Shown: piece by piece, positions 50,770-53,190 of the stretch
Layout of the letters: the number at the start of each line of letters is the position of its first letter
How positions within the stretch are numbered: the first letter of the stretch is position 1
DNA from: Octopus vulgaris
Lineage: Eukaryota
Reading direction: 5' to 3'
NCBI GenBank assembly: GCA_951406725.2
Contig: OX597814.1
Coordinates: 182,032,001 to 182,096,000 of the forward strand
DNA: 64,000 bases
Notes under the pieces: generated by a model
Database searches by the model: none
What the model was told of the DNA's origin: nothing
What the model saw: only the letters and a program-made list of their open reading frames with translations
Position numbers and translations under genes: made by a program

Positions 50770-50915
50770 GTTTCCTTTTGTTACACGTCAGAGCTCGTCT
50801 CTTTTAAATGGTCGGTCCTCGGCTGTTAGTTTCAACAGAGTTATGCCCCTTCTTGAAATAATTTACCCTACCTTTCACTTCCATTACTAAACAATCAAAC
50901 AAAATGGCGCAATAG
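50770..50915 (+). promoter_or_regulatory. Putative promoter of the intronless gene
   Basis: CRE half-site CACGTCA (50784-50790) and YY1-type CAAAATGGCG (50900-50909) in CpG-retaining sequence. Confidence 0.55.
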
Positions 50916-51057
50916 TTCCAGACTAGAGCTTTTCAGCACCTGCTTTTATTTTTGCCTAGCTCGTATATTTATAGACATTTGTATTAGTTTTTGTTCCACC
51001 AAATCCCAGCTACAGATAGCTACATCAACAACATATATAGGTGCGGGGTTTCCTGCC

Positions 51058-51945
51058 ATGCCAAAGAAGAAAAAGAAAATGAGTTACGAAAGACGTCGAA
51101 GACAAGACAGAAGTCGCAAGAGATTATTTCGTGGTTCACAGTCTGATTTATCTCCAATGAACGGTAATCATGGTAATTATGTTTCAAAAGCTTATGCTAT
51201 TAATGAATTTAATTTTGAGGATTTGGATCGAATGATTATGTTTATTACGGAATCGAAACAAATTCAGGGTCGCTACTACGTTCGTTATCTTCCAGGCATG
51301 CTTAATTCCGCTGGAGAATTGACTCCATGTAATTATAGACCCGTTTTCAGCTTTACTTCTACTGCTGCTTCATCTGATTATAACTTTATCCAAAATAATG
51401 ATTACAGCGATGGTTCCCCTGAAGTTGTTGACCTAACTGACAGCGACGGTGTTTCGTCGGAAAACAGCAATCCTGCATCGCCAACTTCACCTTCAACTGT
51501 TGACGAAACTCAAGAGAAACATATTGAAGTTGAAGGTTCAGAAAATGGTGAACCCGGTGAAAAAAAAGATTCGAAAAGTGAAACACCGGGAGCAGAAAAG
51601 GCGAACGTATCTAAATCGATACCAGGGTTTTTATCAACGATAAACAGGAAACAAACCGCACGGAAAAGTATGCGGCAACAAACTGAATCTTTGTCTTGCG
51701 GAACTGAAAACAGTGCATCTCCGGCGATGGACATGGAAACGGAAAGTTCGTCCGTTTCTGCTTCTAATTCCGATTCAGTAAATACCAATAATAATATTCG
51801 AAGTAAAAGTACCAGTAGTTCTATCAACAAAAATAACCTTGTAGCTAACTCCTCGCTAACTAGCAACTGTAAGACTAAGCTACCATCTGATAAGTGGGAC
51901 ATTTTGGATGGAATAACAGTGACTATGAATCCGGATTTTCGATGA
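51058..51945 (+). CDS. Intronless 295-aa putative nuclear protein, largely disordered, with NLS, SIM and H3-tail mimic
   Basis: Longest ORF in the window and not repeat-derived. Kozak-like CCTGCCATG start, upstream YY1 motif, and a UTR-like AT-rich tail with AATAAA. Confidence 0.8.
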   Translation: MPKKKKKMSYERRRRQDRSRKRLFRGSQSDLSPMNGNHGNYVSKAYAINEFNFEDLDRMIMFITESKQIQGRYYVRYLPGMLNSAGELTPCNYRPVFSFTSTAASSDYNFIQNNDYSDGSPEVVDLTDSDGVSSENSNPASPTSPSTVDETQEKHIEVEGSENGEPGEKKDSKSETPGAEKANVSKSIPGFLSTINRKQTARKSMRQQTESLSCGTENSASPAMDMETESSSVSASNSDSVNTNNNIRSKSTSSSINKNNLVANSSLTSNCKTKLPSDKWDILDGITVTMNPDFR

Positions 51946-53143
51946 CCTAACGTTGTTCCCTCTTGTACAAAGAAAGAAAAAAAAAAAGATACAAAACAAA
52001 ACAAAAAAAAAAGACAAAAAAAAAAATTTAATCATGTAAACTTTTACCAATTCGTAGCATATACATTAATTTCATGAATTCATTCATTCAAAGCGAATTT
52101 CTCGTTTCTACTCATGAATTTTCCAACATGGCTGCCTGATTGATAATTGATTACAGGTATCTATTGAATGGATTAGTCACTTTAACTGGAAATTAGTGAG
52201 TGTGCAAATTATATTCTAGTTTTGTTCGGCCAAATTTTTTGGTATCTATTGCTACATTAGGACTCCTGCACTGATGTCACGTGTTTCAGCAGCCATATTG
52301 AGACGATTTTAGCTGGCTGAACTAATTTAGTCACAGGCACTGCTGCATTTAAAGTTCCGATTTTCATCTGATAATGTGTTCATTTTTATCCTCCTTCTCT
52401 ATAAATATTGAAACAAAACAAAACAAAAAAAAAACAAACAAACATTTTTTTTTTTTTCGAGAAATATCCTCAACATATATATATTTTATTTTCTATTGTA
52501 AAGAAAATGGGAAATGTTCCGAAGATGAACCTAAATAATCTACATTTTTTGGACAGGATACTCTGAGTCGGCTAAACTTAAATGACAAAAGAAAAAAAAA
52601 TTTATTCGAGAAAGGCGGGTTTACTATGTTTATACATATGTATATGTGTTTCATATATATTTATAGATATATAAAAACCTGTTGATGTTCCTTCAGCTTG
52701 TGTTCAAAACAAAAATGCTGTGTGTCTATTTACGTCTCACTTAGCTTTAATATTTCTTCTTTTTTCCTATTTGCCCCCCCCCCATCTTCTCCCTCCCTTT
52801 CTCGTTTTAAAAGGTAATATTTAATTAATCATTATTTAATACTTGGAAACCTTTACTCTAAGACTGTAAACCTTCTTGTGGTTATTGCTTTGACTTACTT
52901 TTAAGATCTGACTGATACTTTCAACAAACAAACAATTTGAAAGGAAGCAATTTTTTTATATATGAAAAATACATGTAGAAAAAGCAAGCCACTCAATTTC
53001 ATAAAAGGTTCATAATCATATGACTGCCATGCTGACTTGATTTATATTTTATTCAGTACCTTAAAATGTATATCATCTTGATAAACTTTTTTTGTCTCCC
53101 TTCTTTATAAAACTTCATTTTTTCTCTTCATTTCAAGTTAAAA

Positions 53144-53190
53144 AATAAATCTTAGTTGTGAGAATGTTGACCTTTTTGTACCTTTATTTA
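53144..53190 (+). terminator. Candidate polyadenylation signal of the intronless gene
   Basis: AATAAA at 53144-53149 followed by GT/T-rich downstream sequence. Confidence 0.4.

Follow-up and report, generated by a model that had tools for sequence, protein, structure and literature searches.

The question raised by this locus of Octopus vulgaris is whether a protein of no recognized family, encoded within the 64,000-nucleotide stretch analyzed here (the window), carries a genuine mimic of the histone H3 tail around lysine 9. A sequence-only reading had noticed that nucleotides 51649–51669 of the plus strand encode KQTARKS, identical to H3 residues K4 to S10, and comparison of the translation with the animal's own H3 genes bore this out. 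The heptapeptide corresponds to residues 198–204 of a 295-residue open reading frame (51058–51945). Its context is N-R-KQTARKS-M-R, compared with ART-KQTARKS-TGG in the H3 genes of the same genome, and the match therefore spans K4 to S10 and ends abruptly on both sides. K203 (codon 51664–51666) aligns with H3K9, S204 with H3S10, and K198 with H3K4. The surroundings, described by the same reading as S/T/E/N-rich, are indeed rich in S, N, K, E, T, and D (S 16%, N 9%). This composition, the indels between relatives, and the pLDDT of 35–42, within a model of low confidence throughout, agree with an exposed region that is likely disordered.

In a protein of this composition, KQTARKS is expected 1.3e-6 times, or about 0.03 times in 25,000 such proteins, and any 7-mer from H3 residues 1–40 is expected 2.6e-5 times (about 0.65 in 25,000). 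The presence of the motif is thus by itself only modestly surprising, and what exceeds chance is its conservation. The shorter, four-residue ARKS-type motif is reported to be common, with more than 17,000 proteins in one scan (PMC10611923, PMC11703355), and such look-alikes can mislead, as in the disputed mimic of SARS-CoV-2 ORF8 (PMC10833455). A DNA pattern for the motif, which admits other last residues, had 62 matches in the genome versus 44 for the reversed control. Thirty of the 62 were inspected: one was the present reading frame, 10 were H3 genes, and 19 lay in frames of 12–98 residues, four of which encode exact KQTARKS. One H3 gene copy (L036) leaves the H3 frame after RKQLA, probably owing to a frameshift or an assembly error.

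The proposal presupposed an expressed gene, and the contigs reveal an unspliced polyadenylated transcript of the plus strand at 50891–53164. Contigs were compared from four (X2, X5, X10, and X16) of the 20 runs containing the gene. The X2 contig covers 50891–53164 and continues with 17 A that are absent from the genome. The X5 contig begins at 50893, its loose 5′ end being presumably a cDNA template-switch adapter, and that of X10 begins at 50784. The three small runs cover about 50.8–53.2 kb alone, to which X10 adds a low-depth piece from 55434, and the large run X16 covers the gene and both flanks. Since the gene's words are 88–95% present in 20 runs from eight studies, none of them recorded as RNA, the claim of expression is founded on the contig ends (the 5′ end and the untemplated poly(A)) and not on run labels. 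No splice joint was found among the contigs of the four runs, and the only coding difference listed in them is G51600A, at a silent third position. The poly(A) site follows an AATAAA polyadenylation signal (53144–53149) at a distance of about 15 bases. Between 50891 and the main start there is a single ATG, which opens a three-codon upstream reading frame (50904–50915). This frame is overlapped, at the very start of the transcript, by CAAAATGGCG (50900–50915), taken here to resemble a YY1 site. An A-rich tract (51963–52031) adjoins the stop codon and could be the old poly(A) of a retrocopy; no parent gene for such a copy was found.

The coding sequence is single-copy in the 2.8-Gb genome, where DNA, whole-protein, and domain searches found no paralogue. 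In the alignment, the diverged relatives presented below begin opposite a second in-frame ATG, at 51079. The longer N-terminus of a UniRef entry (P0005) presupposes a splice near 51010, which is absent from all contigs compared, and is likely a prediction artefact. The conserved frame suggests that the transcript is translated.

The protein appears to belong to no known family, in agreement with its initial description as an orphan. Neither Pfam nor a full HMMER pass over 1.84 billion representatives yielded one. With the whole reading frame, Pfam returned a single weak UBR4 row (E 0.32), and with the small conserved domain a weak UDI row in one of three members. A search of the ESM Atlas gave no useful match, and the PDB sequences gave three low-complexity rows only (E 1.6–9.8). 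Foldseek found nothing at E ≤ 0.001 against the PDB and viral models, and a wide fold search with VIA-align found nothing at Z ≥ 2 among 48,161 entries. As the predicted models are of low confidence (pLDDT 42 for the whole protein and 59 for the small domain), the absence of fold matches does not demonstrate a new fold. A chromodomain-like nature of the small domain was considered and dropped, having no support from Pfam or the fold searches. A histone H3 or H3 variant was likewise rejected, as there was no Pfam or PDB match and the likeness is confined to seven internal residues. A viral origin was also discarded: none of the 54 pattern matches from viral contigs was confirmed, and none of the 79 from metagenome contigs. 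No longer or fused form was found among 358 candidates, a comparison that carries little weight. A complex predicted between the C-terminal 40 residues and a chromo-shadow dimer (score 0.15, mark 0.34) counts neither way. Neither the gene nor any histone mimic from a cephalopod was found described in the literature searched, which was mostly non-subscription.

Relatives were sought by word-indexed searches in addition to the HMMER pass, and all searches gave the same three clusters, P0002, P0003, and P0004 (P0001 being the octopus protein itself). P0002 is 97% identical to P0001, and the UniRef protein of Octopus bimaculoides differs from the orphan protein at 6 of 295 residues. Over aligned columns, the identity to P0001 is 48.6% for P0003 and 47.8% for P0004, both of which derive from Logan assemblies; between these two it is 55.2%. 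They are probably orthologues from other cephalopods, judging by the absence of paralogues in the octopus genome. The alignment contains three independent sequences only (P0001, P0003, and P0004).

Four islands of conservation emerge from the alignment. The first is a small domain of residues 43–99 (51184–51354), predicted to consist of a helix and three strands (pLDDT 58.7). The second is VVDLT (residues 123–127, 51424–51438), a motif of the SUMO-interacting type followed by acidic residues and invariant in all four proteins. The third is KQTARKSMR (residues 198–206, 51649–51675), also invariant in the four proteins, three of which are independent. The last is a C-terminal motif, KW..LDGIT.T.NPDF (residues 279–294, 51892–51939). 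Of the four, the sequence-only reading had noted the third alone. The islands are preceded by a basic N-terminus (residues 2–23, 51061–51126) that is predicted to be a nuclear localization signal and would give the protein a nuclear role; its lysine run is present in P0001 and P0002 only, and RRRQ and RKR are common to the relatives.

Conservation of the motif in orthologues had been put forward as one of the checks, with its absence counting as refutation. The region between the small domain and the C-terminal motif (179–246 residues) is 33–45% identical and contains many indels. The only words of at least five letters shared there by the three independent proteins are VVDLT and KQTARKSMR. 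In 20,000 shuffles of the disordered regions, the longest shared word had five letters in 34 cases, six in one case, and never seven or more; as the shuffles ignore shared ancestry, the decisive comparison is that with the 33–45% identical flanks. The conserved unit has nine residues and is longer than the seven-residue H3 match. It starts exactly at the position of H3K4, and the preceding residue varies (R, R, F). The conservation of KQTARKSMR against diverged flanks is the main evidence for the motif. It indicates that the motif is important but does not tell which modification or which partner is involved.

This conservation bears directly on whether the motif could be an inert remnant of a captured H3 gene fragment. 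Such an origin would provide for the exact seven-residue identity, but this identity halts sharply at both ends, and the serine codon is AGT, whereas all 10 H3 loci examined have TCT or TCC, which favors convergence over capture of H3 DNA. A neutral remnant would moreover not outlast its flanks, and this explanation, largely refuted by the conservation, is very improbable.

The sequence-only reading invoked writers and readers of H3K9 methylation, and the octopus genome does encode EHMT, HP1, and UHRF1 domains. An EHMT1-2_CRR domain was found above the Pfam cut-off. A 1,502-codon frame containing KARKSG adjoins the EHMT cysteine-rich exons on the minus strand (G000:C21:1820510-1825015, L076-L077), and KARKSG is possibly an automethylation mimic of octopus EHMT. 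Above the cut-offs there are also a UHRF1 tandem Tudor domain (TTD), 10 matches to the chromodomain, and chromo-shadow domains at two loci. The genome also has a chromodomain exon presumed to be SUV39H-like. The second HP1-like chromo-shadow domain lies in one exon (L040:1258-1662, G000:C10), besides the HP1 gene on C6.

G9a is reported to require R at −1 with a preference for a hydrophobic residue before it, to prefer a hydrophilic and then a hydrophobic residue after the target lysine, and to be impaired by phosphorylation of S10 (PMC8541646). The segment A-R-K-S-M (residues 201–205) displays the A-R-K-[S/T] core of G9a/GLP sites with a hydrophobic residue at +2. At +2, SUV39H1 accepts no residue other than A, G, S, or T; it prefers K at −5 and T at −3 and has Q among its preferred residues at +3, and SUV39H2 reads T11 and G12 (PMC8303541). 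The small +2 residue is lacking here, since M205 is invariant and followed by R at +3. The invariant methionine thus points to G9a/GLP and disfavors SUV39H. A K203 written mainly by SETDB1 or SUV39H would find some accord in the SUV39H-like exon mentioned above and in the invariance of K198 (−5) and T200 (−3), as preferred by SUV39H1, albeit with R at +3 (PMC8303541). Octopus SETDB1 has been reported, together with UHRF1 and H3K9me3 blots (PMC9476566). Nevertheless, the invariant M-R violates the +2 requirement of SUV39H1 and the T11/G12 requirement of SUV39H2 (PMC8303541), and methylation of K16 in ATF7IP, which shares this M-R, required neither SETDB1 nor SUV39H (PMC6172828). These enzymes are improbable as the main writers.

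As for readers, the HP1 chromodomain grips QTARKS (PMC4776139). The UHRF1 TTD reads K4 and K9me3, is not blocked by phosphorylation of S10, and binds far better with R than with K at −5 (PMC10464304); the octopus protein has K at this position. MPP8 prefers methylated ARK[S/T], its tightest ligands having an aromatic residue at −4 (PMC7618375), where the octopus protein has Q, as in H3, and no aromatic residue. VVDLT is the core of the third SUMO-interacting motif (SIM3) of RNF4 (PMC4083429), and with its hydrophobic core, acidic flank, and conservation it qualifies as a candidate SIM of the RNF4 type. Unlike RNF4, the octopus protein has a single such motif and no RING domain. SUMO–SIM contacts are reported to recruit SETDB1 (PMC13108219).

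The protein was compared with the known G9a/GLP mimics, ATF7IP K16, G9a K185, GLP K205, WIZ, and LIG1 K126. It shares with this class the ARK[S/T] core with a hydrophobic +2 residue, the conservation of the motif, and the presence of the writer and readers in the genome. K185/T186 of G9a form a methyl/Aurora B switch read by HP1 and CDYL (PMC8541646). The mimics of G9a and GLP likewise have ARK[S/T] with a neighboring phospho-acceptor, but reside within the methyltransferase itself, whereas the octopus protein has no SET domain. LIG1 K126, which is read by the UHRF1 TTD, also combines a basic residue at −5 with the target lysine. However, this residue is R in LIG1, giving more than 100-fold tighter binding (PMC10464304), and is K, as in H3, in the octopus protein, which in addition has no ligase domain. 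The closest resemblance in the core is to mouse ATF7IP (MCAF1), whose FKARKTMRAS peptide has ARK[ST]MR in common with the octopus protein. G9a/GLP bring K16 in this peptide to about 92% trimethylation, MPP8 binds it, and the mimic is said to be missing in flies (PMC6172828). Both are non-enzymatic proteins, probably disordered in the octopus case as well, with a DLT-type motif of the SUMO-binding kind (LIDLT in an octopus ATF7IP-like exon). In contrast, the ATF7IP peptide shares exactly only ARK with H3, whereas the octopus match is longer, reaching back to K4, and internal rather than N-terminal. The octopus protein, with 295 residues encoded without splicing, has neither the fibronectin-III domain (fn3_4) nor the SETDB1-binding domain. 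It lacks PF16794, PF16788, and detectable homology to ATF7IP, although PF16788 is a weak test in octopus since this profile also missed the ATF7IP-like gene there. An ITEFSL-like FAM motif has been described (PMC7706265), and none was seen by eye in the octopus protein. By analogy, the protein may work like the ATF7IP and G9a mimics, yet it stands outside the ATF7IP family.

The ARK[ST]MR likeness was the reason for seeking ATF7IP in the genome. The only fn3_4 matches lie at C1:181,943,252-913, on the same strand and 139 kb upstream of the orphan reading frame. The frames upstream of them comprise the LIDLT motif and a coiled-coil-like exon (G000:C1:181913055-181943913; L050-L053, L038, L039), and the locus is probably a gene of the ATF7IP/Windei type, even though PF16788 had no match in it. 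No ARK[ST] mimic was found in its recognized exons, where an unseen or degenerate exon is possible; on the plus strand between 181.712 and 181.952 Mb ARK[ST] occurs only twice, once in a frame of 8 residues and once in one of 35. The gene order is ATF7IP-like (+), gamma-SNAP-like (−), orphan (+), and DUF4461 gene (+). The gamma-SNAP-like name is presumptive, Pfam having given weak TPR rows only; exons of this gene lie at 1216–1593, about 6760, and about 20307 of the window. Its probable first exon is the last of these, 30 kb off, and promoter sharing or nesting was therefore dismissed. Downstream, the DUF4461 exon (L087:3-239, G000:C1:182116003) belongs to the next gene, presumably TCAIM-like, whose promoter may be a CpG-richer stretch at 54–55.5 kb of the window. 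Further on there is a 400-codon open frame on the plus strand (G000:C1:182183249, L093).

The chance of a given gene lying within 140 kb is about 1 in 10,000, or about 1 in 700 allowing for some 15 pathway loci, a partly post hoc estimate, and the linkage may be due to chance. No homology was detected between the orphan protein and the octopus ATF7IP-like exons. Origin from a duplicated ATF7IP exon was not supported: the profile did not select ATF7IP exons among 5,008 frames. Two of 15 scores for pairs of orphan protein and exon did beat nearly all of 300 shuffles, both with P0001 and neither repeated by P0003 or P0004. It is a speculative and rather doubtful idea that cephalopods moved the H3K9 mimic from ATF7IP to a linked, stand-alone SIM-plus-mimic adaptor two genes downstream, which would serve in trans the G9a-to-chromodomain relay of the SETDB1/ATF7IP complex and help to silence transposons in repeat-rich genomes.

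Acyl readers of H3K9 exist, and the motif might be a real H3K9 mimic acting in another state, with K203 acetylated or acylated and recognized by bromodomains, YEATS domains, or sirtuins, or unmodified as a decoy in the active site of G9a. The exact identity to H3 from K4 to S10 would suit any K9 enzyme or reader, and the binding of G9a/GLP is stronger with unmethylated or K16R ATF7IP than with methylated ATF7IP (PMC6172828), which sets a precedent for the decoy mode. The M and R that invariably follow the serine nevertheless depart from H3 towards ATF7IP, a proven G9a/GLP substrate, and a motif of the SUMO-binding type suits silencing pathways (PMC13108219); such a state is unlikely on balance.

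About equally unlikely is a kinase site, or a localization or docking motif for an unrelated partner, in which the likeness to H3 would be a convergence without lysine methylation. R-K-S-M presumably resembles the Aurora consensus, the island reaches two residues past the H3 match, and the expectation given above for any H3-tail 7-mer leaves room for coincidence. However, kinase and import signals seldom keep as many as nine residues fixed, with Q, T, and A among them, and the island starts precisely at the H3K4 position, after a variable residue.

The reading considered probable is that of a lineage-restricted, disordered nuclear adaptor, in which K203 is methylated by G9a/GLP (EHMT) and read by chromodomain or TTD proteins, VVDLT binds SUMO, and phosphorylation of S204 is an off-switch. 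An exact copy of the H3K9 site, unchanged in two distant relatives, makes it likely that the protein is methylated and that the gene-silencing machinery reads it like the histone. The basic N-terminus would carry it to the nucleus, where EHMT would di- or trimethylate K203. Methylated K203 would dock in an HP1- or MPP8-type chromodomain, with QTARKS as the footprint, or alternatively be bound by the UHRF1 TTD, which would read K198 as the K4 position. By binding SUMOylated chromatin proteins through VVDLT, the protein would link SUMO signals at silenced chromatin to the readers of H3K9me. Once S204 is phosphorylated, the writer would be blocked and chromodomains would dissociate. Binding partners are presumed for the small domain and for the C-terminal motif as well. 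The reading frame, the mRNA, the four islands, and the EHMT, HP1, and UHRF1 domains of the genome are direct observations, from which we infer all that goes beyond sequence and mRNA, including the methyl–phospho switch at K203/S204 that had been suggested at the outset.

The H3K9 mimics described in the literature compared belong to enzymes or large cofactors of vertebrates. In the octopus, such a mimic seems to carry the chief function of a small protein that is lineage-restricted and has no known domain. If the reading is true, antibodies and reader probes for H3K9me might also recognize methylated K203, which calls for caution in their use. A protein so methylated and read would be a new component of heterochromatin control in cephalopods, and would illustrate that a young gene can join the H3K9 pathway by means of two short motifs.
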